Of a DNA stretch of 64,000 nt, positions 27,388-44,749 are shown in pieces (the stretch's first letter is position 1; each line of letters starts with the position of its first letter). The notes below the pieces were generated by a model. That model did no database searches. It was not told the DNA's origin and was given only the letters and a program-made list of their open reading frames with translations. Made by a program: the position numbers and the translations under genes. The stretch is from Chloroflexota bacterium (lineage in GTDB: Bacteria; Chloroflexota; Dehalococcoidia; SM23-28-2; RBG-16-64-32), in NCBI GenBank assembly GCA_022574655.1, contig JACZRQ010000002.1, positions 5,696 to 69,695 on the forward strand, in the 5' to 3' direction.

Positions 27388-27469
27388 ACCGACGAGTCGG
27401 TAGCGAATCTTCTATCCTACCGTTCGGTCGAGATTCTAGATTCTAGTTACCGTTGAAGGTGTATGTCAA
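27388..27469 (-). promoter_or_regulatory. Sigma70 promoter of the ABC operon with downstream operator-like palindrome
   Basis: Minus strand TTGACA (27469-64), N18, TAGAAT (27445-40). Palindrome CTACCGAC-GA-GTCGGTAG spans 27386-27403. Confidence 0.72.
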
Positions 27470-27726
27470 GGGACTTTTCCAGGTCTCTAATCAAGAAGGC
27501 CGCACCTGATGGGAGAATCCAGGAAGGGCGGCCTTGATTACGACTATTGTTCGTGCGTGTAGAGCCGACGTTCGATGGATGACGCTGTAAGAGGCGGTCC
27601 CCTTCTCTCTGCCAACCGGTCGGTCGTACGTTGACTGCTCGATTGGTGTTGATTATGATTGGCGGCGTGTTGAGCCTCACGCACTAGGCTCGTAGTCAGC
27701 CCATCTAGAACAGCAGGAGGTACCAG

Positions 27727-28707
27727 ATGGCGTACAACGAAGGCGACGACTTCGCGACGCACTTCACAAAGGACGATGAGAATCCTAACGAGGAACCCGA
27801 TAACGCCTACCAGGAGAGCGTTTATATCAGTTTCGTAGACAACGAAAAGGGCATCGGCGGCGTATGGCGCATCGGACTGGAGCACAACCAGGACAAGGCG
27901 AACGTTTGCGCCACTCTCTGGCGCGAAGGTTCGACCTCCTACAACTACTTCTATCGCCATCACCCTAAGCCCAAGGCTGACTGGAGCAACATGCAGGCAG
28001 GCCCCTTGACGATCAAAGTCGTTGAGCCCTGGAAGAAGATTCACGCGGTTCTGAAAGACGATGAGGCAGGGCTCGAGGTGGAGCTGGAATGGAACGCCAG
28101 GACCCCGGCCTTCGACTTCAAGAAAGATGTTCCAGAGCAGCTAATCGGAGCCTTCCGGGAACATTATCAGCAGTTCGGCGACTTCGAAGCGAAGGTGAAG
28201 TGGGGCAGCGAGAAGTTCGATATCTCTGGTACGTGCTTTCGAGACCACTCGTGGGGCGTCCGCGAGTGGGAGCGAGGCTGGAAGTTCGTTATCACCGGTG
28301 GCGTGCTTCGCGACAAGGACCTGTTTTACGTGATGATGGGGCATCGCCAGGGAAGGATGAACGGCGAGGGTGTTGTGCTCACGCATTTCGACCCAGACAA
28401 GGACACTCGTGTAAAATTCCACATCTCCGACTTCCGTGCCGTGTTCGATCCGCCGCCGATCGTCGCCGCGCAGTCATACGTCCTGCACACGCCCGACCGC
28501 GATTTCAGGGTCTGGGGCAGAGCGGTCGCTCCGACGCTCGTCATGCCGTTCGGCAAGGCGCACTTTACGACTGCGCTCTATAAGTGGGACGTGGACGGCG
28601 AGACGGTGTACGGGATCACCGACAACTTCGCCGGCCACCATTTCTCCCACAACTCGTATCCGTTCCCGACACAGGGTGGGGATGGTTCAACAGGCGCAGC
28701 TCTTTAG
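27727..28707 (+). CDS. Hypothetical beta-barrel protein (AttH/CrtC/tocopherol-cyclase-like, RDHSWG motif), paralog 1
   Basis: QESVYISF, HYQQFG and RDHSWGVREW motifs. AGGAGG RBS. Confidence 0.7.
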   Translation: MAYNEGDDFATHFTKDDENPNEEPDNAYQESVYISFVDNEKGIGGVWRIGLEHNQDKANVCATLWREGSTSYNYFYRHHPKPKADWSNMQAGPLTIKVVEPWKKIHAVLKDDEAGLEVELEWNARTPAFDFKKDVPEQLIGAFREHYQQFGDFEAKVKWGSEKFDISGTCFRDHSWGVREWERGWKFVITGGVLRDKDLFYVMMGHRQGRMNGEGVVLTHFDPDKDTRVKFHISDFRAVFDPPPIVAAQSYVLHTPDRDFRVWGRAVAPTLVMPFGKAHFTTALYKWDVDGETVYGITDNFAGHHFSHNSYPFPTQGGDGSTGAAL

Positions 28708-28748
28708 ATTGTGCCCACCAATCGTCGGAGGACTATCGCAACGGCGCG

Positions 28749-30524
28749 CTAGCGAGCAACGGTAACTTCGCCACTCTGTCCATCGACTGTTATCGTCTGT
28801 CCATTCCTTAGCTGAGCCAGCGCACCTTCGACCCCGATAACGGCGGGAACACCGAACTCTCGCGCCATTATCGCACCGTGAGAAAGTGCTCCGCCGATCT
28901 CAGTAACGACTGCGGAGATAATAGGGAATGCGACGGTCCATCCCGGATCGATTGCACTGGCGACGAGCACGTCACCCTGCCGTAACGTATCGACATCACT
29001 CAGCCGTTTGAGGACTCGCGCCGGCCCGGTGGCGATCCCGTGACTGGCAGGCGTCCCGCGCAGAACAAGCGGTCCGCTATCCTCCGCGATGTGCCCTACC
29101 GACACCTCCGGCTCTTGAGATGTTCCGCCAACGAACAAAGGTGGCAGCGATTGGTAGCCTCTGAAGGCAGTCTTTCGCGACCCCACCTTGGCTTGGCCCT
29201 CGGAGATCAACGAGTCGTCGTCTAGAATGTCGAACACCTCCGGCTCCGTGAGAAAGAACACATCCTCTCTGTCGGACAGCACGCCAGACCCCATCAAGTA
29301 GTCGCCGGCGGAAAGTAGCATGCGTCGGTACCTGGAGATGAGTGTATCCGCCACGAAGCGCTGATTCTCTCGACAGGCGGAGTACGCCAGATTGTAACGT
29401 AGAAGCGCGCGGAATATGCGACTCTTCAGCCAGCCGAATCGCTGAGTCTTGAGCGCCGATTCCACCTCCTCCGTCGCGTCACCTCGACGGCGAATCTGTG
29501 TCTCAAGCTCCAAGTCCGGTGAGCGCTCAGGCGGTAAGCTGCACATCGCCTTCAGAATTGCCAACACCGGCGTCGGGTCCTCAACCCAGGAAGGCGCACG
29601 ATATAATTCCTGACTCTCTCTGCGATCGCCGTATTTCGACAGGAACCTTTCGAGCGCCTTGCGGAAGCGCTCGGCCTCAGGCATCTCGCCGACGATCTCG
29701 GTAATCTGCTGCGGATCATGCTGTTCGAAGATGCTGGCGAGCGCAGCTTCTGAATTGATGAGCCGTGAGAGCTCCCACAGGGCCGAGGCAATTTGGACGC
29801 TGACGTTGTCCGGATTCCCAGACACCAAACGGGCAAACGTCTCTTTGTGTCCATCCGGGTACCAGTTTCTTAGAAGTGTAGCCCGAAGAGCGTCCAAGAG
29901 CGTATTGTAGTGAAATATCCAGCCTACGTAGCCGACTTCGTGACGGATCACCAGCTGACGCAACAGCTGTCTGTACCAGAGCAAGTCGTTCAGTGAGCCA
30001 TGATCAAGGTCGATGCCGTCGAGCTTCGATCGCACACGTGCCAAAATGTCCTGGCTTGTGCGTTGAAAGAAGCGGTGGTTTCGGAACAGGCTCTGGTCCC
30101 GGTGGAAGAGAAGGACCCGTAGCTCCCCCAACAGGCGACTCCACAGCTTGAACGGCAGCGAGGCAACCTCATCCCTTTGCGACGGTGGAAAGTGGTTGAG
30201 CAGCTCTTGATCCCTCAGAAAAGGCGGATCGTACTGTGCGCGGCGCCTCAGATACTCTGTGTTCATGTAGGCGCGACCGCGATGATACTTGAACATCGGG
30301 AGGGCCAGGAGATCCCGATACCCTTTCGCCTCGTCGACCGCGTGTTCGAGTGCCTCGCACCACCAGATCACGTAAGCGTAACCACCAGGCGTGAAGGTGC
30401 TGCGCAGGAAGTTGTCCGCCCAGTAGCGGCTCCACACAGTGTCACGCGGCGGGCGGAGAGGCCGGTATGAGATACCCTCCCGGCTTGGCTCGATAACGTC
30501 TTCGTCGATTACGTCGCTCGTCAC
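28749..30524 (-). CDS. PEP-utilizer family protein (substrate domain plus phosphohistidine swivel), lacking ATP-grasp domain
   Basis: C-terminal GTPASHG...GDVLV...DPGW...TEIGGALSHGAIMAREFGVPAV. The N-terminus aligns to residue ~320 of the 42065 paralog. Confidence 0.85.
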   Translation of the reverse strand: MTSDVIDEDVIEPSREGISYRPLRPPRDTVWSRYWADNFLRSTFTPGGYAYVIWWCEALEHAVDEAKGYRDLLALPMFKYHRGRAYMNTEYLRRRAQYDPPFLRDQELLNHFPPSQRDEVASLPFKLWSRLLGELRVLLFHRDQSLFRNHRFFQRTSQDILARVRSKLDGIDLDHGSLNDLLWYRQLLRQLVIRHEVGYVGWIFHYNTLLDALRATLLRNWYPDGHKETFARLVSGNPDNVSVQIASALWELSRLINSEAALASIFEQHDPQQITEIVGEMPEAERFRKALERFLSKYGDRRESQELYRAPSWVEDPTPVLAILKAMCSLPPERSPDLELETQIRRRGDATEEVESALKTQRFGWLKSRIFRALLRYNLAYSACRENQRFVADTLISRYRRMLLSAGDYLMGSGVLSDREDVFFLTEPEVFDILDDDSLISEGQAKVGSRKTAFRGYQSLPPLFVGGTSQEPEVSVGHIAEDSGPLVLRGTPASHGIATGPARVLKRLSDVDTLRQGDVLVASAIDPGWTVAFPIISAVVTEIGGALSHGAIMAREFGVPAVIGVEGALAQLRNGQTITVDGQSGEVTVAR

Positions 30525-30545
30525 TTCAGCTCGCTAGGGCGTCGA

Positions 30546-31508
30546 CTACCCTCCAGGGTGCGCTGGCCCGGATCCGCTTGACTGATGAGAATAGGCGGTC
30601 CCTGCAAAGTTGTCGACAATGCCGTAGGCCATCTCACCGTCAACATCCCATCGGTAGAGCGCCGTCGTGAAGTGTGCCTTGCCGTACGGCATCACGAGGG
30701 TGGGAGCGACAGCGCGGCCCCAGCACTTCTGTTGGCCCGCTGGAGAGTCGAGTGTGTAGGACAGCATGGTCGGGATCGGCGGTGGGTCGAACACCGGACG
30801 ATAGTCCGCCAAGGCGAACTTGACACGAGTGTCTTTATCAGGATCCATATGACTCAGGACTAAGCCACCATCTCCGGCCTGTCCGTCCCGGCTGTCCTTC
30901 CAGACGTAGAGGATATTCTCGTTCGGCAGGAAGATGCCGCCGGTGACCAGCCAATCCCAACCGCGCTCCCATTGGCGAATCCCCCACGAGTGATCCCTGA
31001 ACGTGATCCCGCCGAGCTCGAATGACTCGTCGCCCCATTTGACCTTCGCCTCGTAGCGACCGAACTGCTCGTAGTGCTGACTGGTCCAACCCTTGAGGGG
31101 GTTGGGGTTATCGGTTGCGAAGTCGAATACCGGCGTTTTCCCTTCCCAGTTGATCTCGACGGACAGGTCCGCGTCCGCGTCCTTCAGGGTCGCTCGCACC
31201 TTCTTCAACGGTTCGATAACCTCGTAGTGAACCGGCCCCACCGTCAGGTCGCTTAGATCACCCTCAGGCATCTTGTGATGGCGGTAGAAGTAGTTATATG
31301 ATTCGGCACCTTCGCGCCATAGCGTAGCGCAGCAGGTCGCCCTTCCTTGATTCGGCTCCAACCCAATGCGGAAAACACCGCCTACACCCTTGTTGTCGTC
31401 GGTGAAGCTTATGTAGATGCTCTCCTGCCACGCGTTGTCCGGGTGCTCGCCGTCGTTCGCGTGCTCCTCAGTAAACTGTAGCGAAACCTCTTGGTTCTCA
31501 GAGATCAA
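30546..31508 (-). CDS. Hypothetical beta-barrel protein (RDHSWG motif), paralog 2
   Basis: QESIYISF, HYEQFG, RDHSWGIRQW. Colinear with 27727-28707. AAGGAGG RBS before TTG 31508. Confidence 0.7.
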   Translation of the reverse strand: MISENQEVSLQFTEEHANDGEHPDNAWQESIYISFTDDNKGVGGVFRIGLEPNQGRATCCATLWREGAESYNYFYRHHKMPEGDLSDLTVGPVHYEVIEPLKKVRATLKDADADLSVEINWEGKTPVFDFATDNPNPLKGWTSQHYEQFGRYEAKVKWGDESFELGGITFRDHSWGIRQWERGWDWLVTGGIFLPNENILYVWKDSRDGQAGDGGLVLSHMDPDKDTRVKFALADYRPVFDPPPIPTMLSYTLDSPAGQQKCWGRAVAPTLVMPYGKAHFTTALYRWDVDGEMAYGIVDNFAGTAYSHQSSGSGPAHPGG

Positions 31509-31827
31509 TGCGCTGTTCCTCCTTCGCAAGAACGTATGGTGCGGTAAAGGTTGATCCGATCATCTGAATCCGCCCAAGTCAACGGATGTCGCTCGTGACT
31601 CTACCGACCGCTCGATCTGCATGTAGAATGTAATCATCGCAACAGCAACTTTGTCAACGTCTGCATCTTCGCATCAAGCAATCTCAAATCACGTCTGACT
31701 AGCGCTTCGTCTCGAACCGTGTCCAGATCGATGTGATTCGAACCTGAGCGGTGAGAACCCCAAGTTCGAATGAAGCGGCCTATCGGCGCGCCGCTGCGGA
31801 GTGACAAGCAACGTGCGGCGAACTCGG

Positions 31828-32625
31828 TTAACTACCTTTGAACTGAGGTTTTCGCTTCTCGAGGAATGCCGTGGCCGCTTCCTTGAGATCGTCGCTGTCA
31901 AGTGTAATTGATTCGAGGATTGCAGACGTATCGACTGCAAGGTTGACATGGTCACGTAACAGTTTGTTCAGACAGAACTTCGTCCAGCGAATGGCGAGGG
32001 GCGACCCAGACGCCAGTTCGCGCGCGAGTTCCATCGCCTTAGGCAGAGCCTCAGCGGCAGGTACGGCATAGTTCACCATACCCATCTCAGCAGCTTGCTT
32101 GCCCGTAATCCATCGACCCAGAAGGAGATACTCTTTCGCGCGGGCCATTCCCACCAGCCAGGGCCAGATGACGACACCGCCGTCACCGGCCACCAACCCC
32201 ATGAGTACGTGGGCGTCGCTGATACGGGCATCTTCGGCGGCCACGATGATGTCGCTAAACAGAGCAAGCGTGGCACCCAGCCCGGCTGCATCACCGTTCA
32301 CCGCCGCAACGATCGGCTGTTCCACCTCGAGCATATAGAGGAGCAGCCGTCGAACCTCAGCCAGCGGCACCTCCTGCGCTCTGTCGCGCCAGGTTCCGGC
32401 CTGAAGCACTTTCGCGTCCCCGCCGGCTGAGAAGCCAGTCCCGGCACCGGTCAACACGATGCATCGGACATCCCGATCCTTGCTTATCTCTGAGAATAGC
32501 GACTCCAACTCCTTGTGCATCTCTGGATTGATCGCGTTCCGCCGTTCGGGGCGGTTCAACGTCACCGTGGCGATGCCGTCTTCATCCTTCTCGACGACTA
32601 TGAACTCGTATTGGCCGTAATCCAT
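31828..32625 (-). CDS. Enoyl-CoA hydratase/isomerase
   Basis: LNRPERRNA, FSAGGD, AVNGDAAGLG and GLVAGDGG motifs. Confidence 0.92.
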   Translation of the reverse strand: MDYGQYEFIVVEKDEDGIATVTLNRPERRNAINPEMHKELESLFSEISKDRDVRCIVLTGAGTGFSAGGDAKVLQAGTWRDRAQEVPLAEVRRLLLYMLEVEQPIVAAVNGDAAGLGATLALFSDIIVAAEDARISDAHVLMGLVAGDGGVVIWPWLVGMARAKEYLLLGRWITGKQAAEMGMVNYAVPAAEALPKAMELARELASGSPLAIRWTKFCLNKLLRDHVNLAVDTSAILESITLDSDDLKEAATAFLEKRKPQFKGS

Positions 32626-32665
32626 GCCTTATTCCTCTCGTGGGCGTCGGATCGCTAGCGCAGGT

Positions 32666-33853
32666 TCAATTTGGATTCGAGCTGATGTCCAATGACCCGA
32701 GGGCTCCGGCCGCCGATGCCTTACCTATCGCCAACTGAAGGATCTCAGCAGCACCCCCGCCGAGAACGACCGCCATGTTGTCCCGATAGAATCTCTCGAC
32801 GCCAACCTCAACCGTGTAACCCCAGCCGCCGTGAATGTGCATAGCGTGCTCTGTGACGTACTGAGCCATAGTTGTCGCGAACAGCTTCGCCATCGCAGCC
32901 TCCGAAGTACAGCGCTGCCCAGCGACTTCGAGCGATGTGGCGTAGTACCCTAGCAGCTTCGATGCCGTGATCTTCGTCGCCATCTCAGCGAGCATAATCT
33001 GAACCGCTTGGAAGTCACCGATGGGTTGGCCAAAGGCCTCTCTCTGCCGCGAGTAGGCCTGGGCTCGCTCGTAGGCACCCCTGGCGATTCCGGTGGATAG
33101 AGCGCAACAAAGAATCCTGTCAACATCGATCGAGGCGAGCGCCATCTTCAGCCCGTCACCTTCCTTCCCGAGCAACGCGCCCTTGGGGATGTGCACGTCG
33201 TCAAACGTTACCTCGTTCTGGTACGAGGACTTCATGCCGCTCATCTCGATCGGGTCTGATACCGAGATGCCAGGCGTGTCCTTCTCGACGAGGAAGGCCG
33301 AGTACTTCCTGTCTCCGTCACCGTTGCTCATCCCGGCGAGAACCATGCCAACGCTAGGAAGAGGGGCGCCGAAGTTCGTGATCAACGTCTTCCGACCGTT
33401 GAGGACGTAGTCGTCGCCGTCGACGGCTGCGGTCGTTTTCACGCCCCGAACGTCGGAACCGGCATCAGGTTCGGTCATGACAATTGCGCCGATAACCTCT
33501 CCGCGAGTAAAGCGGGGAAGATACTCCTTGCGCTGGTCGTCCGTACCCATCCGGTAGATAACCTTGTAGCCGATGACTCCCGAGTGGACCATGCAGTCCA
33601 TCGCGAAACCAGGGAGTGCAGTCGCAAGCTCCTCCGCGATGATGAAGTCGGCGAGCAGGTCGAGGCCACCGCCGCCGTATTCGGTCGGTATAGCGGCTCC
33701 CAGCCAGCCCAACTTTGTAACGGCCCGGAAGAGATCCAGAGGGAACTCGCCGTTGCGCTCGATCTCTTGGGCGTGCGGGGCGACTTCTCTTCGGGCGAAG
33801 TCCCTGACCGACCGCTGCAGTAGCCTGTGCTCCTCGCTCAGATTGAATTCCAT
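32666..33853 (-). CDS. Acyl-CoA dehydrogenase
   Basis: MTEPDAGSD, LNGRKTLITN, FGQPIGDFQ and HIHGGWGY motifs. Confidence 0.93.
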   Translation of the reverse strand: MEFNLSEEHRLLQRSVRDFARREVAPHAQEIERNGEFPLDLFRAVTKLGWLGAAIPTEYGGGGLDLLADFIIAEELATALPGFAMDCMVHSGVIGYKVIYRMGTDDQRKEYLPRFTRGEVIGAIVMTEPDAGSDVRGVKTTAAVDGDDYVLNGRKTLITNFGAPLPSVGMVLAGMSNGDGDRKYSAFLVEKDTPGISVSDPIEMSGMKSSYQNEVTFDDVHIPKGALLGKEGDGLKMALASIDVDRILCCALSTGIARGAYERAQAYSRQREAFGQPIGDFQAVQIMLAEMATKITASKLLGYYATSLEVAGQRCTSEAAMAKLFATTMAQYVTEHAMHIHGGWGYTVEVGVERFYRDNMAVVLGGGAAEILQLAIGKASAAGALGSLDISSNPN

Positions 33854-34067
33854 GACTTCACTTCCACTGCCTACTCAACGACATCTCTTGCGCCGCAGTC
33901 GTTGCTTGCCGGGCGAGCAACATTCGTGTAAATTACTGCTGACCGACCGTTCGGACGATATCAGTACACCAGTCGCCGTTAGCGCTGTCAAGAATCACCG
34001 ACTCGTCGATGAGCCGTGGCCCCAAGCGATGCGCCCAATCGGCGTTGCCCGAAGGAGGCGGGTGCCC

Positions 34068-35255
34068 ATGGATAAGAGTCATCGAGGGGAAGTGGCGATC
34101 GTCGGCATCGGCGAGGTACCGTCCGGGGTTTACCCGGACCGCCCGTGTCTGCAGAGCGCCCTAGAATCGGCGCGGGACGCGATCAAGGACTCGGGACTAC
34201 CCCACGACGAGATCGACGTGGTGATACCAGCGGGAACATTCTACGACCCCTGGTACAACACGAACATGATCTTCTCTCAGCTCGTAGAAGAATTGGGGCT
34301 GACCGGCAAAGCGAAGATGAACCTGCAGGTTGTGGCGGGCGGGGCCAGCAGCAGCGCCATGATGGAGACGGCCGCGGGCCTAGTCGTTACTGGCAAGGCC
34401 CGGGCCGTGTTGTGTGTTCACGCGGAGAAGTGGGGCTCGATGCCCAACCAAGAGATGTACGACAAGCTGGCGACGTTCGGGATCTCCCCGGAGTGGGAGG
34501 CTCCATACGGTCTGAACATGAACGCCGTGGCGGCGCTGATCACCCAACGCTACGCATTCGAAACCGGCACAACGACCGAGCAGCTGGCCTCCGTTTGCGT
34601 GGCTCTGAGAAAGTGGGCGGAGCTTAACCCGAACGCCATGTACCAGAAGCCTTTGACACTTGAGGACGTGCTCCGTTCCAAGCTCGTGACTAGCCCGCTC
34701 CACGCCTTCGAGTGCAACAGACTTGCAGACGGAGGATCGGCTTTCGTTGTCACCAGTGCCGAAAGGGCGAAGTCACTCGATACAGTTCCTGTGTATCTCT
34801 TAGGCTCGGGGTCAGTGGTCACCCACTACGCGATCTCTCAGGAAACGGACATGAGCCGCTTCGGCTATACCCAGGCGGCCGACGAAGCTTTCGAGGCGGC
34901 CGGCCTGGGCCCGGAGGATATCGACATCGCGGAGATCTACGACTCCTACCCGGTGTTTAACCTCATCGCCTTGGAGCAGATAGGATTCTGCAAGCGCGGG
35001 GAGGCCGGACAGTTCGTGATGGAAGGGCACACTTGGCCCGGCGGATCTTTACCCATGACGACGAACGGCGGCATGCTCTCCCAGGGCCACACGGGCACCG
35101 GGGGTGGGATCGCAGTGCTCGTTGAAGCGGCCCGACAATTGATGGGCAAGGGCGGAAAGCGTCAGGTTGAAGGAGCCCGCTTTTGCGTGGAGACAGCGAC
35201 GGGCGGCACCTATATGGATGCGCATGTCAGCGTGTTCGGACGGGAGGTTCCATGA
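34068..35255 (+). CDS. Thiolase family protein (SCP2/lipid-transfer type, non-canonical)
   Basis: VAIVGIGE, LADGGSAFV, DIAEIYDSY and TNGGMLSQGH. GGASS replaces the catalytic-Cys motif. AAGGAGG RBS. Confidence 0.9.
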   Translation: MDKSHRGEVAIVGIGEVPSGVYPDRPCLQSALESARDAIKDSGLPHDEIDVVIPAGTFYDPWYNTNMIFSQLVEELGLTGKAKMNLQVVAGGASSSAMMETAAGLVVTGKARAVLCVHAEKWGSMPNQEMYDKLATFGISPEWEAPYGLNMNAVAALITQRYAFETGTTTEQLASVCVALRKWAELNPNAMYQKPLTLEDVLRSKLVTSPLHAFECNRLADGGSAFVVTSAERAKSLDTVPVYLLGSGSVVTHYAISQETDMSRFGYTQAADEAFEAAGLGPEDIDIAEIYDSYPVFNLIALEQIGFCKRGEAGQFVMEGHTWPGGSLPMTTNGGMLSQGHTGTGGGIAVLVEAARQLMGKGGKRQVEGARFCVETATGGTYMDAHVSVFGREVP

Positions 35256-35665
35256 GCGGCTACAAAAAGCCCCTTCCGGAGGTTACTCCGTGGAGCCAGC
35301 CGTTCTGGTCCGCCGCGAAGGAGCATCGCCTTGTCTTTCAACACTGCCCGAGCTGCGAGCTGAACATTCTCTATCCAAAGTTGTTTTGCCCGAACTGCTA
35401 CAGTTCCGATCTGCAGTGGATGGACGCCAGCGGCCGAGGCGAGGTCTACACGTTCAGCGTCATCCACCTGCACCCACCTTCGCCCTTCCGGGATTCTCTG
35501 CCATATGTTGTTGCGATTGTGCAACTTGACGAAGGCGTCCAGTTGATGACGAATATCGTTCGCTGCGCCCCGGAGGACGTGAAGTGCGGGATGAGCGTGG
35601 TTGCCGAATTCGACGATGTCACTGACGACTTCACTCTCGTGAATTTCCGACCGGCGGCCATGTGA
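35252..35665 (+). CDS. DUF35 Zn-ribbon/OB-fold protein (thiolase partner)
   Basis: PFW, CPSC..YPK..CPNC, SGRGEVYTFSV and LDEG motifs. ATGA overlap with the thiolase. Confidence 0.92.
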   Translation: MSGYKKPLPEVTPWSQPFWSAAKEHRLVFQHCPSCELNILYPKLFCPNCYSSDLQWMDASGRGEVYTFSVIHLHPPSPFRDSLPYVVAIVQLDEGVQLMTNIVRCAPEDVKCGMSVVAEFDDVTDDFTLVNFRPAAM

Positions 35666-35693
35666 GCGGATGAGCGACCGCAGAGGCGCGACA

Positions 35694-36152
35694 ATGACTT
35701 GGCGAAGTTGGGACGACATAGAGATCGGTCAGACTATACGGAGTCAGGAAGTCACAGTTACTGAGACTCATCTGGTGAACTGGGCTAGCTTAACCGGCGA
35801 CTGGTTCGAACTGCACATGAGCGAGGAGTACGCCAGGTCCACGATCTTCAATCAGCGTGTAGTGCACGGGCCCCTCACATTCGGTCTCTCCATCGGTCTC
35901 GCTTACCAGACCGGCTACGTCAACAAGGACTGGGTCATCGCCTGGCTTGGCGCCAACGACATGAAGCTTCCGAAGCCGGTCTTCATCGGCGATACTGTAC
36001 ATCTCGACCTGTCGGTTGTCAGCAAACGCGAAACCAGCAACCCTGACCGAGGGATTGCGGTGCTGAAGTACGACATCAAAAATCAGAACGACGATACAGT
36101 TCTCGAGTTCGAGTCAACGTTCATGGCTCGACGAGCGAGCGGCGGTCCGTAA
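35694..36152 (+). CDS. MaoC-family (hot-dog) dehydratase
   Basis: FASLTGD-like WASLTGDWFELH, VVHG and PVFIGDT motifs. Confidence 0.9.
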   Translation: MTWRSWDDIEIGQTIRSQEVTVTETHLVNWASLTGDWFELHMSEEYARSTIFNQRVVHGPLTFGLSIGLAYQTGYVNKDWVIAWLGANDMKLPKPVFIGDTVHLDLSVVSKRETSNPDRGIAVLKYDIKNQNDDTVLEFESTFMARRASGGP

Positions 36153-36164
36153 GAGTAACGTAGA

Positions 36165-37037: not shown

Positions 37038-37218
37038 AGAGTGGCGCCATTGTATGACGGGGCGTTGCGTTCGGCATGACATCACCAGTTCAGGTAGCCG
37101 CTACCTTCTGCTTGCGACGCCTCAAGATGACTAGTAAGCTGGGGAGGCTCAACGCTGCCGTACGCGGTCTCTCTCCCTTGAGGTGGCGACGGTTGCGTCT
37201 CGCAAGGAGGCGAACGCG

Positions 37219-38025
37219 ATGGCCAGTGTCTTGTATGAGAAGAAGGGTGAGCTGCTCTACGTCACGCTCAACAGGCCCGACGTCCACAACGCATGGGACC
37301 CAGAGACTGTCGTGCGTCTGGCCGACGCCTGGAGAGACTTCGCGGCCGATGACTCCCTTCGAGTCGCGATAATCACGGGCGCCGGCGATCGATCGTTTAG
37401 CTCCGGCGCCGATCTCAAACGGTTGATCCCCCTTCTTTACCGGTCGAGAGAGCCAGAGGACGAGTGGGACAACAAGGTCCTCCAGAATTCAGATATCGCC
37501 AGAACGGCTCTGCTCAGAGGATACGAGCTACACAAACCGATCATCGCGGCTATCAACGGATTCTGCCTAGCCGGAGGGATGGAGCTAATCCAAGCGACCG
37601 ACATACGGATCGCCGCAGAGCATGCGACGTTCGGCCTCACGGAGGTCAAACGCGCCATCATCCCGGCCGGCGGATCGCTCGTGAGGCTCGCCCGACAGAT
37701 CCCGTACTGCCACGCCATGGAGATCTTGCTGACGGGCGAATCCATTAGCGCCGAGGACGCTCAGGGCATTGGGCTCATCAATCGAGTTGTGCCCGCAGAC
37801 GAGCTTATGAGCACTGCCGAGGGAGTTGCGGCTAAGATCGCAGAGAACGGGCCGTTGGCCGTCCGCAAGATCAAGGAGACAGTCTTGAAGACTATAGGCC
37901 TGCCCCTCGCGGAAGCGTTCGCCGTTGAGGATGACGCCGTGCGCAGCATCCGGGACTCGGAGGATGCGGTCGAGGGTCCGCTAGCGTTCGCTGAGAAGCG
38001 GAAGCCGCGCTACGTCGGAAAGTAG
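37219..38025 (+). CDS. Enoyl-CoA hydratase (crotonase)
   Basis: LNRPDVHNA, FSSGADL, GFCLAGGME and FGLTE. AAGGAGG RBS. Confidence 0.92.
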   Translation: MASVLYEKKGELLYVTLNRPDVHNAWDPETVVRLADAWRDFAADDSLRVAIITGAGDRSFSSGADLKRLIPLLYRSREPEDEWDNKVLQNSDIARTALLRGYELHKPIIAAINGFCLAGGMELIQATDIRIAAEHATFGLTEVKRAIIPAGGSLVRLARQIPYCHAMEILLTGESISAEDAQGIGLINRVVPADELMSTAEGVAAKIAENGPLAVRKIKETVLKTIGLPLAEAFAVEDDAVRSIRDSEDAVEGPLAFAEKRKPRYVGK

Positions 38026-38065
38026 TGCGCGACGGTCCCGCCTATCTCGATTGATGGAGGATGCC

Positions 38066-38806
38066 ATGAAACTCAAAGACAAGGTTGCCGTCATCACCGG
38101 CGGCAGCAGCGGCATCGGGCTCGCGATCGCCGAAGAGTTTATCGCTGAGGGGGCGAATGTGGTCATCTGCGGGCGGAATCAGGCTGCGCTGGATGAAGCC
38201 TCAGGGGGACTCGGAGAGAAGGCGCTGGCCGTTCGGGCGGATGTAAGCGTAATGACCGACCTAGATCGCCTGTTCGACGAGACCGCTTCGCGTTTCGGTA
38301 ACATAGACGTCGTCGTCGTCAACGCCGGGGTCGCCATCGCTACATCGCTCGAGGAAACGGACGAAAAGATCTTCGACGAGCAGTCGGACATCAACTTCAA
38401 GGGAGCCTATTTCACGGTGCAGAAGGCCAGCCCGCACCTGAACGACGGAGCTTCGATCATCTTCATAAGCTCAACGGCGAACCAGATGGGCCTCCCTAAC
38501 ACCTCAGCCTACAGCGCAACCAAGGCTGCACTTCGCTCTCTCTCCAGAACCCTGTCGACGGAGCTGCTCCCGAGAGGCATTCGGGTGAACACGCTCAGCC
38601 CCGGGAATATCGTCACGCCCATCCTGCGTAAGATGGGCGTCGAGGACATCGACGCGTTCCTCAAGGAACGCGAATCCCAGGTGCCCTCGGGTAGGTTCGG
38701 AACGGCAAAGGAAGTAGCAACAGCCGCCGTCTTCCTGGCGACCTCAGACTCGTCATACGTCGTGGGCTCAGAGGTAGTCGCCGACGGCGGTTGGTCGCAG
38801 CTGTGA
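38066..38806 (+). CDS. SDR oxidoreductase
   Basis: TGGSSGIG, NAG and YSATK motifs. Confidence 0.92.
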   Translation: MKLKDKVAVITGGSSGIGLAIAEEFIAEGANVVICGRNQAALDEASGGLGEKALAVRADVSVMTDLDRLFDETASRFGNIDVVVVNAGVAIATSLEETDEKIFDEQSDINFKGAYFTVQKASPHLNDGASIIFISSTANQMGLPNTSAYSATKAALRSLSRTLSTELLPRGIRVNTLSPGNIVTPILRKMGVEDIDAFLKERESQVPSGRFGTAKEVATAAVFLATSDSSYVVGSEVVADGGWSQL

Positions 38807-38939
38807 CAGAGACGTGCTGGCGCGGATTCAGCAAGGGTGACCAGTCCTACTAAGGAGCGGGTTCATAGCCTGTCCCGCCCTTCGAGTTAAGCTGGTCTAA
38901 CCACCCGGGTTCTTTACTGGGAACAGGAGACTTACCCCA

Positions 38940-40187
38940 TTGCGTCGGCCAGCGCTCAGCGGCCCAGAATCCAACATCTGGAAGTATTACACCTTCCAGT
39001 TTCTTCTGAATTTTCAGCTCTGGTGGCCGATCTGGGTCATCTATCTCACGGAGCAACGCGGCCTATCGCTCGGCCAGGTGACTCTCATCGATGTCCCGTT
39101 CTGGGCGACTATCGTCTTCCTTCAGATCCCATCGGCCGCTGTCGCCGACCGTTGGGGACGGAAGCCGACCCTGATCGCAGCCGGCCTGTCCATGGCGGTA
39201 GCCGTAACCCTATTCGGCGTCGCGTCCTCGTTCTGGCTGCTTCTGCTCTCATATCTGATCTGGGGCATTTCGTTCTCGCTGCTCTTCGGCGCTGAGTCGG
39301 CGTTCATCTTCGATTCACTCAAGTCGATGGGCCGGGAGAACGAGTACTCAAAAATATACGGTCGCGCTTGGGGCCTAGCAACGGCGGCGATGCTTGCTGG
39401 CACACTCATCGGCGCGCCGCTCGCAGACTCTACGAACCTCAGTGTCCCGATCATCGTCAGTGGAGGCATCGCCGGGCTGGCTGCCCTGTTCGCGATCACG
39501 CTTTCCGAGCCTGAACCCATGGATCGAAGCCGGAAAACCATCTCATACGCCAAGATCATTGGGGACAGCGCGCAGCTTGTTCGAACGCGACCAGCAGTGC
39601 GATACTCGATCCTCTTCTATGGTCTCATTACGGTGGGAAGCATCGCTCCGGTCATTCTCTTCCAACCGTTCCTTATAGAGCACGACGTTGACATCGGGGA
39701 TGTGGGCTTCTGGCAAACGCCAACTCGCGTGGCCGGAATCGTCGGCGCGGTCGCCGCACACCGACTCATTCTCGCGGCGGGCGAGCGGGCGACGTTCTAT
39801 GCCATGCCTGTCGTCCTGATCTTCTCGTACTTGATGCTCGGGCTTTGGGATTCACTGTATGCCCAGATAGCATTTCCTTTGATGAACTTCGTCGTCATCC
39901 TCTCGCAACCGACGGTGACCGACTACCTGAACCGCCGCGTGCCCACGGAACAGCGGGCGACCGTCATCTCACTCACGAACTTGGCGCGCTCGGCCGTACT
40001 GATCCTCGCGGCGCCGCTTCTGGGGCTGCTCGCGGACGAGGCGTCGCTCGCCACATCGTTCATAGTCGCCGGTGCGCTGGTCGCCGGCTTCGGGCTGCCG
40101 CTGATGGCGCTCTGGTCGCCATTCATATCGCCTCACAGAGGCGCCGAGACGATCGAGGCCGAGCCAGCGAGCAAGGGGGGCGACTAA
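38940..40187 (+). CDS. MFS transporter
   Basis: About twelve TM segments, ADRWGRK motif A and SGAESA-like segment. Confidence 0.88.
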   Translation: MRRPALSGPESNIWKYYTFQFLLNFQLWWPIWVIYLTEQRGLSLGQVTLIDVPFWATIVFLQIPSAAVADRWGRKPTLIAAGLSMAVAVTLFGVASSFWLLLLSYLIWGISFSLLFGAESAFIFDSLKSMGRENEYSKIYGRAWGLATAAMLAGTLIGAPLADSTNLSVPIIVSGGIAGLAALFAITLSEPEPMDRSRKTISYAKIIGDSAQLVRTRPAVRYSILFYGLITVGSIAPVILFQPFLIEHDVDIGDVGFWQTPTRVAGIVGAVAAHRLILAAGERATFYAMPVVLIFSYLMLGLWDSLYAQIAFPLMNFVVILSQPTVTDYLNRRVPTEQRATVISLTNLARSAVLILAAPLLGLLADEASLATSFIVAGALVAGFGLPLMALWSPFISPHRGAETIEAEPASKGGD

Positions 40188-41014
40188 GTCGATGGCCCGA
40201 CGGGCGGCCAGGAGACCCGCCTCGGCTCTCGCCAGCCTTGGGCCGCATCGAGCGCAGTGGCGAACCAGACACCGTCGCGTCCCTTCATGTGTTCGATCAG
40301 CCGCTCGAGCACTCCGATCCGCGAACGGCGCCCGATCAACTGAGGATGTAGCGTGATCAAGAACATGCCACCTTCTTCGTAGGCCTTGTCGAACTCCGTC
40401 TGCCACAGGGAGAGAATGTCATCGGGAGGGAGCATTACGTTCGACCCACCGAAGAAGTAGGCGCTGAACGGAAAATCATCGAGTTCCCAGCTCACTGGCA
40501 GCTGGATGAGGGGCTCCGGCATGCCCTCGACATCGATCAAGTACGGGTTGTCGTCACCCATCAGGCTACTGTCGTAAACAAATCCCTCTTCAAGCAAAAG
40601 TTTCGCCGTATGCAGGTTGTGGTCCCAAGGCACCACACGCGCGCCACGCGGCCTCGAACCTGTCACTTCCTCAAGCGCCTTCAACGAGCGTCGGATCAGG
40701 CCTCGCTCCTCATCAACCGACATTCCGATCACTGACTCACAGTTGAATCCCTCGTATGCGACCTCCTGACCAAGCTCCATCGCTCGCTCGACCTCTGCCC
40801 TGTGATTCAGCGCGACCCACGCGGGGACAAAGAAAGTACCTGGGACCTTGTAGCTGTCGAGCAAATTCATCACCCGCTCAAACCCGGCCCTCGCGCCGTA
40901 CGCTCCACGCTCCATCGAGCCGGGCGAATCCATCTCGAGTGCACCGAACCACATCGCTTCGGCATCGAAGTTCCAGGTGAGTACGACGGCGCACCGTTTT
41001 CCGTTCGACCACAT
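40184..41014 (-). CDS. Polysaccharide deacetylase / PuuE-like (CE4) protein with altered metal ligands
   Basis: TWNFDAE, GTFFVP, YDSSLMGDD.PY, LPVSWELDD and LHPQLIG motifs. Confidence 0.85.
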   Translation of the reverse strand: MWSNGKRCAVVLTWNFDAEAMWFGALEMDSPGSMERGAYGARAGFERVMNLLDSYKVPGTFFVPAWVALNHRAEVERAMELGQEVAYEGFNCESVIGMSVDEERGLIRRSLKALEEVTGSRPRGARVVPWDHNLHTAKLLLEEGFVYDSSLMGDDNPYLIDVEGMPEPLIQLPVSWELDDFPFSAYFFGGSNVMLPPDDILSLWQTEFDKAYEEGGMFLITLHPQLIGRRSRIGVLERLIEHMKGRDGVWFATALDAAQGWREPRRVSWPPVGPST

Positions 41015-41117
41015 CCGATCCCTCCTTAGGACATAACGACAAGGACGTCAGGCGATGGCTCAATAGATCGCTCGCCTTCGAGCTTCCTCGTCCTGCGCTC
41101 GATTATATTGCCTTTCC

Positions 41118-41161
41118 CCCGACCGGTTGGTATTGACGCTTCAACGATACTGAACTATCTT
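41118..41161 (+). promoter_or_regulatory. Sigma70 promoter with adjacent operator-like site
   Basis: CCCGACCGGTTGGT (41118-31) directly before TTGACG (41133-38), N17, TATCTT (41156-61). Confidence 0.65.
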
Positions 41162-41283
41162 GCGAACGAGGGTCCAGCCCGTGGTGTGAAGAGGACGCAT
41201 ACGGCCGACCCAGCATGATCGCGAATCGAAGGCCTCGCCGACGTAGCTTTCGCTTGGCCCAGCATGGAAGGACTCTGTGACCG

Positions 41284-42051
41284 ATGAGACTCAAGGATCG
41301 CGTAGCCGTCATCACCGGAGGTGGATCTGGTATCGGCAAAGCGACGGCACTTCTCTTTGCCAAAGAGGGCGCTAAGATCGCGATCTTCGAGATCGCCGAA
41401 GACAACGCACGCGAGGCAGTGAAGGAGGTTGAGGCGGAAGGTGGCACCGCCATCTACGCGCTTGCCAACGTGGCCAGCGAGTCAGAGGTGGAGGTGGGAG
41501 TCCAGAAAGTGATCGACACGTTCGGCAGGATCGACATCCTATTCAACAACGCAGGGGCTCATCGCTATCCGCACACCAGTACACCGATCGACGAGCTACC
41601 CGAGTCCGAGTGGGATCGAATCGTCGACAGCCACCTGAAGGGCTGCTTTCTCTGCTCCAAGCATGCGGTGCGTCAAATGAAGAAGCAAAAGAGCGGTGTC
41701 ATCGTCAACATCGCCTCGATCTCTGGCCTGGTCGGGATCCCTTACGTGCACAACTACGGAGCCGCCAAGCACGGCATCATCGGTCTAACCAAAGAGCTAG
41801 CCGTCGAACTCGCAGACTTCGGGATTCGTGCGAACGCGGTTGCGCCTGCCAGCGTCGATACTCCGATGCGCTGGCATGGTGGCAAGGGCATCTCTGACGA
41901 AGTACGGGCGGAGATCAGCCGCACAATTCCCTTGAAGCGGATCGCTCAGCCGGAAGAGATAGCGCAGGGAGTTCTCTACTTAGCGTCTGACGAATCGTCG
42001 TTCGTCACGGGCGCCGTGCTCCCTATCGATGGCGGATACGTCGCCCAGTAG
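41284..42051 (+). CDS. SDR oxidoreductase
   Basis: TGGGSGIG, NNAG and YGAAK motifs. Confidence 0.92.
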   Translation: MRLKDRVAVITGGGSGIGKATALLFAKEGAKIAIFEIAEDNAREAVKEVEAEGGTAIYALANVASESEVEVGVQKVIDTFGRIDILFNNAGAHRYPHTSTPIDELPESEWDRIVDSHLKGCFLCSKHAVRQMKKQKSGVIVNIASISGLVGIPYVHNYGAAKHGIIGLTKELAVELADFGIRANAVAPASVDTPMRWHGGKGISDEVRAEISRTIPLKRIAQPEEIAQGVLYLASDESSFVTGAVLPIDGGYVAQ

Positions 42052-42064
42052 ACGTAGGGACGAC

Positions 42065-44749
42065 ATGGCACAATCCCCCGGCGATGGCAACGTCACAGGC
42101 CTAGTAGCTCCGCTGGCGGACGTTGGAGAAGCGGACGCGACCGCCGTTGGAGGCAAAGCCTTTGGACTGAGCAGGTTGGCCCAAGGCGCGTTCGAAGTAC
42201 CGTCAGCGTTTTGCATTAGTTGCGCAGCTTACCGGCAGTTCATGGAGCAGACTGGGCTCGAGAACCTGATCAACGCCAGGAAAGATCGTATCGCGTCAGC
42301 GGACATCAAGGACGCGCGCAAATTGAGTGCCGAGCTGACTGACCACCTCATGCAATCAACGATGCCGGCCGATTTGGAAGCGGAGATCGTTGCGTCTTAC
42401 AAGCGGCTGGTCGGCTCGGACATCTCTAAGCACGTTGCCGTGCGCTCGTCGCCGGCTGTGAGTCTCCCTGGTCAATATCACACCGCTCTGAACGTCGCTG
42501 GAGAGGACCACGTTCTGGACGCGGTGAAAGATGTCTGGGCATCGTACTGGACCCCTGAGGCGATCGTCACCAGGGGTGCGTTGAGTGTCCCTCACACGCC
42601 TGTACAATTCGGGGTCGTCGTTCAGGAGATGATTGATGCGGAGGTCGCGGGGATTCTGTTCACGGCTGAGATGCCCAGCGGCGATGAGAGCAAGATCGTG
42701 ATCGAAGCGGTGACTGGGCTCGCCGAGACTCTTGCGCTAGGTAGACGTGATCCCGATAGGTTCGTTGTGGACAAGGCGAGTCTCGATGTGATTGAGCGGA
42801 TCGCCGCACCTGCTGGGGGTTCGAACAAGACCGAAGCGGTAACGGAAACACTTAGTGACCAACTGATATCGGAGCTCTGCCGCATTGGTTTGTCAGTCGA
42901 AAAGAACTTCCAACATCCGGTGGACATGGAGTGGGCCTATCGGGAGGGGCGCTTCTACACGCTTCAGGCACGAGCTATCCGAGGCTTGGCAGACGAGGAC
43001 GTCATCGAGCCCTGCCGCGATCACTTCCAATACAATCCCCGTCCGCCGCGTTCCGACGCGGTGTGGAGCCGGTATTACGGAGACAACTTCCTGCGCGGCA
43101 GATTCACACCCGCGGGATATTCCTTCGTGATCTGGTGGCCAGAAGCGATGGAAACGATCATCGACCGGACACGGGGATACAAGGAGCTAGAGAACGTTCC
43201 TCTGTTTCGCTACTATCGCGGCCGGGCGTACACGAACACCGACTACCTGAAGCTCCGTGTCCAGTACGAACCACCGTTTCTGCGGACGCAAGAGTCGATG
43301 AATCACTTCCCATCCTGGGAGCGGGAAGAGATCGCCTCCATGCCGTTCCGGTGGTGGAAGAGGCTATGGGGGGAGTTGCGGGTCCTGGTGCTGCGCCCGA
43401 ACCAGAGCCTGTTCAGGAACTACCACTTCTTCGAGCGCGAGAGCGCAGACATCCTCGATAAGATCCGAACCGAACTCGACCCTATCGACCTGAACGCGTC
43501 GTTGGAGGAATTGCTCCGCTATCGCGATGTGCTTCGGAGGCTGATCGCCCGCCACGAGCTAGGATACGTCGGATGGATCTTCCACTACAAGTTGATGATC
43601 GATGCCCTCCTGACGATGCTGCTGAAGGAGTGGTACGGGCCGGGTCACGAGGAGCTGTTCGCCAGCCTCCAGGCAGGCGTCCCGGACAACATCAGCGTGA
43701 AGACAGCCGGGGCGATGTGGGAGGTCTCTCGCGTCGCCGCCGGGGATCCCGTCGTGGCTCGTGCGTTTGAGCGTATAGACACGAAGGATCTCTTAGACGA
43801 GCTGAAAGGTGTGCCGCAAGCCGAGACGTTCTTGAACGCGCTAAGTGGCTTCCTGGACGAGTACGGGTACAGAAGGGAAGCGCTGACGATAGAGCCTCCT
43901 TCGTGGGAGGAAGATCCGACGCAGGTCATCCGTATCTTGAAAGCGATAGTGAAACTGCCGGACGACCGTTCACCAACCTCCGAGCTCGAGGCACAGATTC
44001 AGCGAAGATTGGAAGCCACCGCCAAGGTCGAAAGGGCTCTATCCTCGCAACGCTGGGGTTGGTTCAAGAAACGGGCCTTTCGGGCAGTCCAAAAGTACAG
44101 CCTCGCCTACCTTGCATGTCGCGAGAATCAGCGCAAAGTCGCGGACCCATGTATCTCACGCTATCGGCGGATGTTCCTGGCCTTCGGTGACCGGCTCGTC
44201 CCGCGGGGTGCGCTATCCGATAGGGTAGACGTGTTCTTCCTATCGGAGCCGGAGATTCTTGAGGCGGTGATGGACGATGGCCGAGCCGAATACTGCAAGA
44301 ACAAGGTTCAGTCACGCAAGGCCACTTTCCCGAGTTACGAGGCGCTCCCGCCGATGTTCGTTCGCGGGAAATCGGAGGAGCTACTGCCCGAGGCCGTGGC
44401 GAGCAGGCATGCTACGGACGGTCAGTTGGTCCTGGAAGGCACTCCCGCGAGCCCTGGCGTGGCATCAGGACCGGCCCGGATCCTGCACCGCCTCGACGAG
44501 GTAGATTCTCTCACCCTAGGTGATGTGCTCGTCGCAAGCGCGATCGATCCTGGCTGGACCAGCGCGTTCCCCGTAATCGGCGCGGTCATCACCGAGATTG
44601 GCGGCGCCCTTTCTCATGGCGCCATCATGGCCCGGGAGTTTGGCGTGCCTGCCGTGATCGGAGTGGAGGGCGCACTGACGGCGTTAAAGGATGGCCAATC
44701 CGTCACAGTTGACGGTCTGAATGGGACAGTTACCGTCGACGAAAGCTAA
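42065..44749 (+). CDS. Three-domain dikinase, rifampicin-phosphotransferase-like architecture (ATP-grasp, substrate domain, His swivel)
   Basis: GGKA, AVRSS, VVVQEMI, DMEWA..YTLQAR and C-terminal GGALSHGAIMAREFGVPAV. Confidence 0.9.
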   Translation: MAQSPGDGNVTGLVAPLADVGEADATAVGGKAFGLSRLAQGAFEVPSAFCISCAAYRQFMEQTGLENLINARKDRIASADIKDARKLSAELTDHLMQSTMPADLEAEIVASYKRLVGSDISKHVAVRSSPAVSLPGQYHTALNVAGEDHVLDAVKDVWASYWTPEAIVTRGALSVPHTPVQFGVVVQEMIDAEVAGILFTAEMPSGDESKIVIEAVTGLAETLALGRRDPDRFVVDKASLDVIERIAAPAGGSNKTEAVTETLSDQLISELCRIGLSVEKNFQHPVDMEWAYREGRFYTLQARAIRGLADEDVIEPCRDHFQYNPRPPRSDAVWSRYYGDNFLRGRFTPAGYSFVIWWPEAMETIIDRTRGYKELENVPLFRYYRGRAYTNTDYLKLRVQYEPPFLRTQESMNHFPSWEREEIASMPFRWWKRLWGELRVLVLRPNQSLFRNYHFFERESADILDKIRTELDPIDLNASLEELLRYRDVLRRLIARHELGYVGWIFHYKLMIDALLTMLLKEWYGPGHEELFASLQAGVPDNISVKTAGAMWEVSRVAAGDPVVARAFERIDTKDLLDELKGVPQAETFLNALSGFLDEYGYRREALTIEPPSWEEDPTQVIRILKAIVKLPDDRSPTSELEAQIQRRLEATAKVERALSSQRWGWFKKRAFRAVQKYSLAYLACRENQRKVADPCISRYRRMFLAFGDRLVPRGALSDRVDVFFLSEPEILEAVMDDGRAEYCKNKVQSRKATFPSYEALPPMFVRGKSEELLPEAVASRHATDGQLVLEGTPASPGVASGPARILHRLDEVDSLTLGDVLVASAIDPGWTSAFPVIGAVITEIGGALSHGAIMAREFGVPAVIGVEGALTALKDGQSVTVDGLNGTVTVDES

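Follow-up and report, generated by a model that had tools for sequence, protein, structure and literature searches.

Full-length and ATP-grasp-less dikinases linked to 25-PSL-like barrel proteins in a putative catabolic supercluster of a Chloroflexota bacterium

The 64,000-nucleotide (nt) stretch of DNA analysed here (hereafter, the window) lies on contig C98 of the metagenome-assembled genome (MAG) of a Chloroflexota bacterium of the Dehalococcoidia, of which 2.65 Mb are assembled at 77% completeness. The window carries two paralogous dikinases of the RPH/PigC type, a full-length one (LONG) and one that lacks the ATP-grasp domain (SHORT), the latter flanked on both sides by barrel proteins related to 25-phosphosteroid lyase (25-PSL), an enzyme with which cholesterol is degraded anaerobically. 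We propose, with moderate confidence, that these genes form part of a TetR-regulated catabolic supercluster in which the dikinases and the 25-PSL-like barrels would together drive removal of a hydroxyl group at the expense of ATP, with SHORT being charged by LONG. Because the dikinases are paired with relatives of 25-PSL, the cluster probably phosphorylates a hydroxyl and then eliminates the phosphate.

LONG (42065-44749, plus strand; 894 amino acids (aa) according to the gene caller) contains the PPDK_N (E 6e-63), Rph_4th (PF27448, from precomputed Pfam) and PEP-utilizers (E 1e-22) domains; its open reading frame (ORF) extends over 42029-44749, and the alternative start at 42029 would yield a product of 906 aa. 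SHORT (28749-30524, minus strand; 591 aa) includes only Rph_4th (PF27448, likewise precomputed) and PEP-utilizers (E 2e-24): Pfam found no match to PPDK_N in it, and a six-frame scan of positions 27000-32000 with custom hidden Markov models (HMMs) revealed no remnant of an ATP-grasp. SHORT aligns to residues 322-903 of LONG with 59% identity, and the alignment opens at DEDVIEP in both proteins. The His motif (GGALSHGAIMAREFGVPAVIGVEGAL / GGALSHGAIMARE) is identical between the two, and His549 of SHORT is invariant in an alignment of 24 sequences. The AlphaFold2 (AF2) model of SHORT (pLDDT 90.4, pTM 0.90) consists of a helical substrate domain (residues ~7-468), a flexible linker (469-482) and a swivelling His domain (483-591), and superposes on the rifampin-binding and His domains of Listeria RPH (5hv1/5fbt; Foldseek E 2.5e-22, TM 0.70). 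In the His domain, SHORT is 77-80% identical to LONG (77%) and to copy A (G019_A) of the nearest complete genome, a Dehalococcoidia bacterium MAG (G019, OY762959.1); the substrate domains of SHORT and LONG share just 55% identity, which argues for a second substrate specificity of SHORT.

By its profile scores, LONG belongs to the RPH/PigC superfamily, in a separate subfamily outside every characterised equivalog. It scored 328 bits against the NCBIfam model RIF_Ptrans_rph (cutoff 999), 328 bits against RedH (cutoff 1350) and 285 bits against PigC (cutoff 1300), in each case far below the equivalog level. In the phylogenetic tree, the subfamily comprising LONG and SHORT occupies a long separate branch. 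It is also small: an exhaustive phmmer search against 1.84 billion cluster representatives recovered one other cluster above 50% identity (P0057, 885 aa), with all else at or below about 39%.

Barrel #1 (27727-28707, plus strand; 326 aa) is convergent with SHORT, and barrel #2 (30546-31529, minus strand; ORF of 327 aa, 320 aa according to the gene caller) lies directly upstream of it, the start codon of SHORT being located 21 nt past the barrel #2 stop. The two are paralogs of the DUF7065/Rv3169 family (Pfam, NCBIfam), 57% identical to each other and both with the RDHSWG motif; the NCBIfam Rv3169 family model matches them below its cutoff. The AF2 model of barrel #2 (pLDDT 77, pTM 0.80) is an all-beta double barrel, for which the top five Foldseek matches are 25-PSL chains (9fzn, 9g2i, 9g4c; E 4e-14 to 2e-13, TM 0.63-0.66), followed by fungal Diels-Alderases, kievitone hydratase and AttH (E ~1e-8 to 1e-9). 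The C-terminal DUF7064 model of Pfam found no match in the window barrels, though the AF2 model shows a second barrel. At the sequence level, the barrel profile matches 25-PSL with an E value of 2.7e-12, aligned up to RDRSWGVR in 25-PSL and RDHSWGIR in the barrels, and even the single sequence of barrel #1 matches the 25-PSL chain 9fzn (phmmer E 6e-9). Fold and sequence comparison thus both indicate that the barrels are homologous to 25-PSL, sharing RDxSWG. The R-D-H-S-W-G residues are invariant in 18 diverse family members, and the product-complex entry of 25-PSL (9g4c) reads RNRSWG, so that the Asp of the motif is probably catalytic. An earlier note on this DNA had described LONG as having ATP-grasp, substrate and phospho-His domains, SHORT as opening at the DEDVIEP boundary with its His motif kept but no nucleotide-binding domain, and SHORT as flanked by two RDHSWG paralogs, one of them 21 nt away; domain matches, alignment, six-frame scan and coordinates bear out all three, and the structure search that it had suggested for the barrels placed 25-PSL at the top.

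The association of such barrels with kinases recurs across genomes. One genome per species was scanned for DUF7065, giving 80 loci, the partners of which were tallied with custom HMMs. An RPH-like dikinase is adjacent at 25 loci and fused in one ORF at 2, and a kinase of the APH/EcKL type is fused at 13 and nearby at 7; no kinase partner was detected at 33. Genetic linkage alone therefore connects 47 of the 80 loci to a kinase (27 RPH-like dikinase, 20 APH/EcKL). The dikinase-bearing loci derive from Thermoplasmata, Methanomassiliicoccales, Methanofastidiosa, Methanomethylicia, Halobacteria, Chloroflexota, Acidimicrobium and Proteobacteria. For each of the three next-closest homologs of the window barrels (60-66% identity), the next gene downstream encodes a full-length dikinase from the subfamily of LONG and SHORT, in the order barrel, dikinase (885 aa), barrel in locus L023 and barrel then dikinase in L024/L025 and L026. 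These loci also hold an acyl-CoA dehydrogenase, an enoyl-CoA hydratase, an importer of the type found in the window and a TetR_C_24 regulator.

Single ORFs encoding dikinase and barrel were found in Thermoplasmatota/Thermoplasmata MAGs (L035:3337-6888, 1183 aa; L053:3316-6861, 1181 aa) and in P0067 and P0097; Pfam identified PPDK_N, PEP-utilizers, DUF7065 and DUF7064 in the L035 and P0067 proteins. In such fusions, the proposed pair of kinase and lyase would be united in one polypeptide. Pfam likewise confirmed fusions of EcKL/APH with DUF7065 and DUF7064 in Mycolicibacterium, Solirubrobacterales and other Actinomycetota, with the barrel behind the EcKL/APH domain (L063:4873-6870, L082:4498-6870, L096:4876-6915, L097:23-1828 and others). 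In Mycobacterium tuberculosis, the family member Rv3169 presumably neighbours the APH-like Rv3168. The repeated fusion or adjacency of the barrel to kinases of two unrelated families provides strong genomic evidence that the barrel would act on the phosphorylated product of the kinase. Barrel and kinase thus recur as a module of a kinase plus a putative phospho-lyase, probably an ATP-dependent dehydratase. The 25-hydroxysteroid kinase (25-HSK), with which 25-PSL is known to work, is itself a member of the APH/EcKL family (PMC8449060). Separately, Acidimicrobiales and Microthrixaceae MAGs carry, ~0.8 kb upstream of DUF7065 genes, ORFs of ~125 aa (L079:4474-4857, L099:4468-4839, L104:4468-4833) whose match to the dikinase profile is confined to its C-terminal part, the His domain, and which may encode stand-alone phospho-carrier domains.

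The origin of the two dikinases of the window can be traced by comparison with G019, which shares the gene order of positions 19922-47298, the encoded proteins being 62-91% identical. The tree places LONG with G019 copy B (78% identity), which is syntenic, as an SDR-dikinase-HAD gene series, and SHORT with the full-length G019_A (64% identity), which is located elsewhere, beside a GNAT gene; the next relative of SHORT, P0057 (52% identity), is full length as well. In G019, the barrel #2 ortholog is followed directly by the importer genes, with no dikinase beside it, and the barrel #1 ortholog (90% identity) lies ~9 kb from that of barrel #2. A search in the Chloroflexota MAG for the empty site of dikinase copy A, made through the GNAT neighbour in G019, returned just paralogs of 46-48% identity. 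The barrel-then-dikinase order is probably ancestral, because it is also found in L023, L024 and L026. As judged from the same sequence comparisons, the removal of the ATP-grasp is specific to the lineage of SHORT; its boundary lies in the linker between the domains, where independent short forms elsewhere also begin. SHORT would accordingly have descended from a full-length, barrel-linked dikinase and, having lost its ATP-grasp, would still sit in the barrel-adjacent position typical of the subfamily. The barrel-SHORT arrangement was seen again in three other assemblies, all 100% nucleotide-identical and therefore from the same population; a misassembly of the junction in this MAG alone was considered and rejected, since all three carry the same layout.

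Linker-starting short forms have arisen independently, directly beside barrel genes, at no fewer than three unrelated loci: L036 (584 aa), in a Chloroflexota MAG that also has a full-length dikinase with a barrel (L029), L109/L110 (P0066, 570 aa) and L111 (P0061, 567 aa). No ATP-grasp was found in any frame near these three; the gene upstream of the L109 short form was considered as a split ATP-grasp subunit and rejected, as it encodes an acyl-CoA dehydrogenase. A further candidate short form, in L047, was discarded, as its N-terminus is hidden by runs of N. More generally, proteins with Rph_4th and PEP-utilizers but no ATP-grasp (520-600 aa; NCBIfam PRK08296) are common in this bacterial family, and this PRK08296-like subfamily is 31-37% identical to SHORT. 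Sister genera also encode stand-alone PPDK_N proteins of 320-425 aa, one of which adjoins a short form in genome G006; these go with the PRK08296-like short subfamily, not with that of SHORT. In the Dehalococcoidia relatives L107 (5001-8074), L011, L012 and L015, the PRK08296-type protein is often followed directly by a gene of ~480 aa, a major facilitator superfamily transporter in L107, and no barrel or ATP-grasp gene lies beside it in any of the four.

Several proteins of 1330-1500 aa combine one PPDK_N with two PEP-utilizers modules (the L031 ORF, P0069, P0070, P0075 and P0080), an architecture that to our knowledge has not been described before. A DUF7065 gene immediately follows the L031 ORF (L031:399-4907; 1502 aa); in P0059, two His modules occur without an ATP-grasp. 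Proteins in which a lone ATP-grasp is joined to two His modules set a precedent, in fused form, for a single nucleotide-binding domain that serves two His/substrate modules, and their natural occurrence makes charging in trans plausible. It is thus plausible that SHORT is phosphorylated in trans by the ATP-grasp of the co-regulated LONG, a possibility supported by the facts that LONG carries the sole RPH-type ATP-grasp in the assembled genome, that a candidate operator is common to SHORT and LONG, that their His domains are 77% identical and that sister genera have stand-alone PPDK_N subunits. The only PPDK_N found elsewhere in the assembly belongs to a PPDK-like frame of 961 aa on contig C13. 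No stand-alone PPDK_N gene was found in the assembled 2.65 Mb, an absence that, at the stated completeness of the MAG, is unproven.

The candidate operator, CCGACCGNTCGG, was found from k-mers common to the promoter regions. With no more than one mismatch, it has 13 strand matches at 8 sites in the window, against 3.5 +/- 2.0 expected, and 0 of 100 shuffles reached 13; at two mismatches it is not enriched (56 matches vs 52 expected). A simple inverted-repeat search of the three promoter regions yielded almost nothing. Seven of the eight sites are intergenic (beginning at 12634, 27416, 27612, 31604, 33943, 41119 and 47845). The site at 27416-27427 (CCTACCGTTCGG) lies just downstream of the -10 element of the promoter-like site of the binding-protein operon, and that at 27612-27623 (CCAACCGGTCGG) 8 nt upstream of the -35 element (TTGACT-17-TATGAT) before barrel #1. 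The site at 31604-31615 (CCGACCGCTCGA) is upstream of the barrel #2-SHORT unit, and that at 41119-41130 (CCGACCGGTTGG), the reverse complement of the 27612 site, is just upstream of a TTGACG -35-like hexamer before SDR-LONG. A further copy (33943-33954) falls inside a beta-oxidation-type gene block, between the acyl-CoA dehydrogenase and the thiolase. From this distribution, SHORT, LONG, both barrels, the importer and the beta-oxidation genes appear to be one regulon. The repressor that binds the shared operator is likely the TetR-family regulator (TetR_N and TetR_C_24 by Pfam) encoded at 18403-19107 on the plus strand, a candidate to which the TetR_C_24 regulators flanking the barrel-dikinase modules of L023, L024 and L026 also point. 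The outlying copies, one at 12634-12645 between SnoaL-like and DM13-domain genes and one at 47845-47856 upstream of a PD40 beta-propeller gene, imply that the putative TetR regulon reaches beyond the module.

The putative regulon members other than the dikinases and barrels fall into two groups. The ATP-binding cassette (ABC) importer (23001-27243, minus strand; Pfam) comprises an ATPase with TOBE_2 (23001-24092), a double BPD_transp_1 permease (24131-25918) and an SBP_bac_8 binding protein with a twin-arginine translocation signal (26020-27243); the same type of transporter stands beside the barrel-dikinase pair in L024, L025 and L026, and is present in G019. The beta-oxidation-type block (31828-36152, both strands), collinear with G019 at 83-91% aa identity, includes an enoyl-CoA hydratase (31828-32625) and an acyl-CoA dehydrogenase (32666-33853) on the minus strand, and an SCP-x-type thiolase (34068-35255), a ChsH2-type zinc-ribbon/OB protein (35252-35665) and a MaoC hydratase (35670-36152) on the plus strand. 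The thiolase was listed as a 560-aa ORF (33573-35255) overlapping the divergent acyl-CoA dehydrogenase gene; its start was placed at 34068 because the G019 ortholog has 395 aa, at 91% identity.

Taken together, these genes suggest the following route. The adjacent ABC importer would bring in a hydroxylated substrate, the hydroxyl of which the dikinase would phosphorylate with ATP through a phosphohistidine on its swivelling C-terminal domain. The DUF7065 double barrels would then eliminate the phosphate, the net reaction being an ATP-driven dehydration of alcohol to alkene, and the CoA ligase or transferase, acyl-CoA dehydrogenase, hydratases and thiolase would degrade the product. One nucleotide-binding domain, that of LONG, may serve two substrate/His modules of different specificity, matched by the two barrels. 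The suggestion of the earlier note that a dikinase activates the substrate of the barrels fits their homology to a phosphate-eliminating lyase. Operator-like sites do, as it said, precede all three transcription units (barrel #1, barrel #2-SHORT and SDR-LONG), and the dikinase-barrel link recurs, both in the three next-closest barrels, which precede a dikinase of the same subfamily, and in 27 of the 80 DUF7065 loci, including 2 fusions. Its talk of a new system went too far, as dikinase and barrel are both of known families, and so did its treatment of the short form as distinctive, ATP-grasp-less forms of the PRK08296 kind being common.

The closest known counterpart is the 25-HSK and 25-PSL pair of Sterolibacterium denitrificans, which dehydrates a tertiary alcohol in an ATP-dependent manner (PMC7411048, PMC8449060). 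The resemblance extends to the barrels, homologous to 25-PSL down to RDxSWG, to the coupling of a kinase with a lyase-like protein, here by genetic linkage, and to a catabolic context leading to CoA-dependent beta-oxidation. Unlike 25-HSK, a reversible APH-type kinase that converts ATP to ADP, the kinase here is an RPH-type dikinase with a His-phosphoenzyme. Characterised RPH enzymes convert ATP to AMP and Pi. The gene vicinity of 25-HSK has no candidate lyase gene (PMC8449060), whereas kinase and lyase-like genes are adjacent here; moreover, lyase-like protein and dikinase are each present as two paralogs, and the barrels are only 16-18% identical to 25-PSL. From the ABC importer and its periplasmic binding protein one may speculate that the substrate is soluble and not a steroid. 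With Listeria monocytogenes RPH (PDB 5fbs, 5fbt, 5fbu, 5hv1) and PigC/RedH, LONG shares the same three domains and the catalytic His motif, but the genes linked with its subfamily encode lyase-like barrels and catabolic enzymes rather than functions in resistance or pigment synthesis, and SHORT, unlike RPH, has no ATP-grasp. In that respect SHORT resembles split dikinases, its His/substrate module being apart from the ATP-grasp polypeptide as in PRK08296-type proteins and in the phenylphosphate synthase of Thauera aromatica, which reportedly has separate His-carrying and ATP-binding subunits. Unlike the case of phenylphosphate synthase, no ATP-grasp-only gene was found in the assembled genome, and the proposed donor is a complete paralog with its own His module; unlike PRK08296-type proteins, SHORT belongs to another subfamily and is a lineage-specific truncation.

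A different account would make SHORT a recently truncated, dead remnant from which the 5' third of the gene has been deleted, with LONG alone serving both barrels and SHORT bound to disappear. The truncation is indeed unique to this genus within the subfamily, with G019_A and P0057 full length; the sister genome has no barrel-adjacent dikinase at all; the SHORT branch is ~1.5 times as long as that of its sister (0.40 vs 0.27); and SHORT starts with GTG behind a weak ribosome-binding (Shine-Dalgarno) site. We nevertheless consider this account unlikely, given that the parsimony branch ratio of nonsynonymous to synonymous substitution rates (dN/dS) is 0.21 for SHORT, compared with 0.16 for G019_A, 0.08 for LONG and 0.12 for G019_B (pairwise, 0.15 between SHORT and G019_A, with dS saturated), and that no stops or frameshifts interrupt its 591 codons. 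Change at invariant positions is not in excess: SHORT differs at 10 of the 128 positions invariant in the other six subfamily members, as many as G019_A does, and retains all 16 positions invariant across 22 full-length dikinases. Over the first 50 residues that it retains, SHORT matches the full-length sister G019_A at 84% identity, the cut falls precisely in the inter-domain linker, as in the other independent short forms, and pairs of a short form with a barrel recur elsewhere. SHORT therefore does not look decayed, and codon comparison and the structural model are consistent with a folded protein under purifying selection. The dN/dS near 1 that the earlier note named as a sign of decay was not found, the ratio being ~0.2; its idea of a conserved short form went too far, as the truncation of this copy is lineage-specific and the closest relatives are full length.

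It is also conceivable that SHORT is functional but charged by a donor other than LONG, either a stand-alone PPDK_N protein whose gene lies in the 23% of the genome missing from the assembly, or a housekeeping PPDK by way of its ATP-grasp. The PPDK-like frame on contig C13 fits the latter; stand-alone PPDK_N proteins are common in the family, and one stands beside a short form in G006; set against this, none was found in 2.65 Mb, those of relatives accompany the different, PRK08296-like short subfamily, and LONG is the closest paralog of SHORT, with the same operator-like site, which makes another donor quite improbable. Much the same low probability attaches in our estimate to a chemistry other than dehydration, be it an ATP-activated condensation like that of PigC/RedH or, on the part of the barrel, hydration at another carbon, isomerisation or cyclisation as in its Diels-Alderase, kievitone-hydratase and CrtC-like relatives. 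Consistent with such a chemistry, LONG is similar over its whole length to RedH and PigC, albeit below the NCBIfam cutoffs, and the Foldseek matches after 25-PSL are pericyclases and hydratases. But 25-PSL is nearest by both sequence and fold and has RDxSWG in common with the barrels, the barrel's repeated fusion with kinases from two unrelated families speaks for a phosphorylated substrate, and the importer and beta-oxidation genes set the system in a catabolic context.

Apart from the weak start signals of SHORT, several points weigh against the reading in which LONG charges SHORT and the barrels eliminate phosphate. A very recent deletion of the ATP-grasp would leave the same selection signal as that seen in SHORT, and the nucleotide identity of the three other assemblies means that they provide no population or polymorphism data for a selection test. 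In G019 neither dikinase adjoins a barrel and there is no short form, so that the arrangement described here is young and dispensable in the sister genus. At 77% completeness of the MAG, another ATP-grasp donor may exist. The barrels are only distantly related to 25-PSL, the sequence match being confined to the N-terminal barrel, and as their same-fold relatives include hydratases and pericyclases, elimination is not the sole possible chemistry. Finally, we know of no biochemistry for this dikinase subfamily, nor for DUF7065 proteins besides 25-PSL.

Around the dikinases and barrels lie further genes. A short-chain dehydrogenase (SDR; 41284-42051, plus strand) is encoded directly upstream of LONG, a pairing kept in G019, as is the HAD-family hydrolase (44746-45426, minus strand) convergent with LONG; the latter might, speculatively, be a phosphatase for off-pathway phosphoesters. 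Beside the LONG unit, a flavin-halogenase-like gene is split into two ORFs (45961-47298 and 47148-47633), and its G019 counterpart (L022:6966-8648) is one ORF of 560 aa, with 82% identity across 445 aa. Also found around the cluster are genes for a CoA ligase, a CoA transferase, enoyl-CoA hydratases, SDRs and luciferase-like oxidoreductases.

To date, ATP-dependent dehydration via a phosphoester is known in a single steroid pathway of one denitrifier (PMC7411048, PMC8449060). The adjacent genes and the archaeal and actinobacterial fusions, including relatives of Rv3169, suggest that the lyase family is broadly distributed and travels with a kinase, which gives a testable function to the Pfam families DUF7065 and DUF7064, and also to many archaeal and Chloroflexota genes annotated as 'PEP synthase' or 'rifampicin phosphotransferase' that are unlikely to encode either. 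Because the group-transfer potential of the tertiary phosphoester is close to that of ATP, 25-HSK is fully reversible (PMC8449060); a dikinase producing AMP and Pi would get round this thermodynamic problem by making the phosphorylation of a poorly activated alcohol irreversible. More tentatively, the DUF7065/DUF7064 barrel and its kinase may constitute a widespread, uncharacterised family for ATP-driven, two-step activation and removal of hydroxyls on non-steroid substrates, in which many archaea and Chloroflexota would use an RPH-type dikinase and Actinomycetota an APH/EcKL kinase, with the phosphate serving as the leaving group for elimination or carbocation chemistry. This possible broader picture includes a dikinase charging network, in which one ATP-grasp would serve several His modules in cis or in trans. 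SHORT and LONG, along with the proteins that combine one ATP-grasp with two His modules, offer a tractable system for probing a possible charging of swivelling His domains between polypeptides, and such a network, if true, would add a new principle to the way in which swivelling-domain dikinases are organised.

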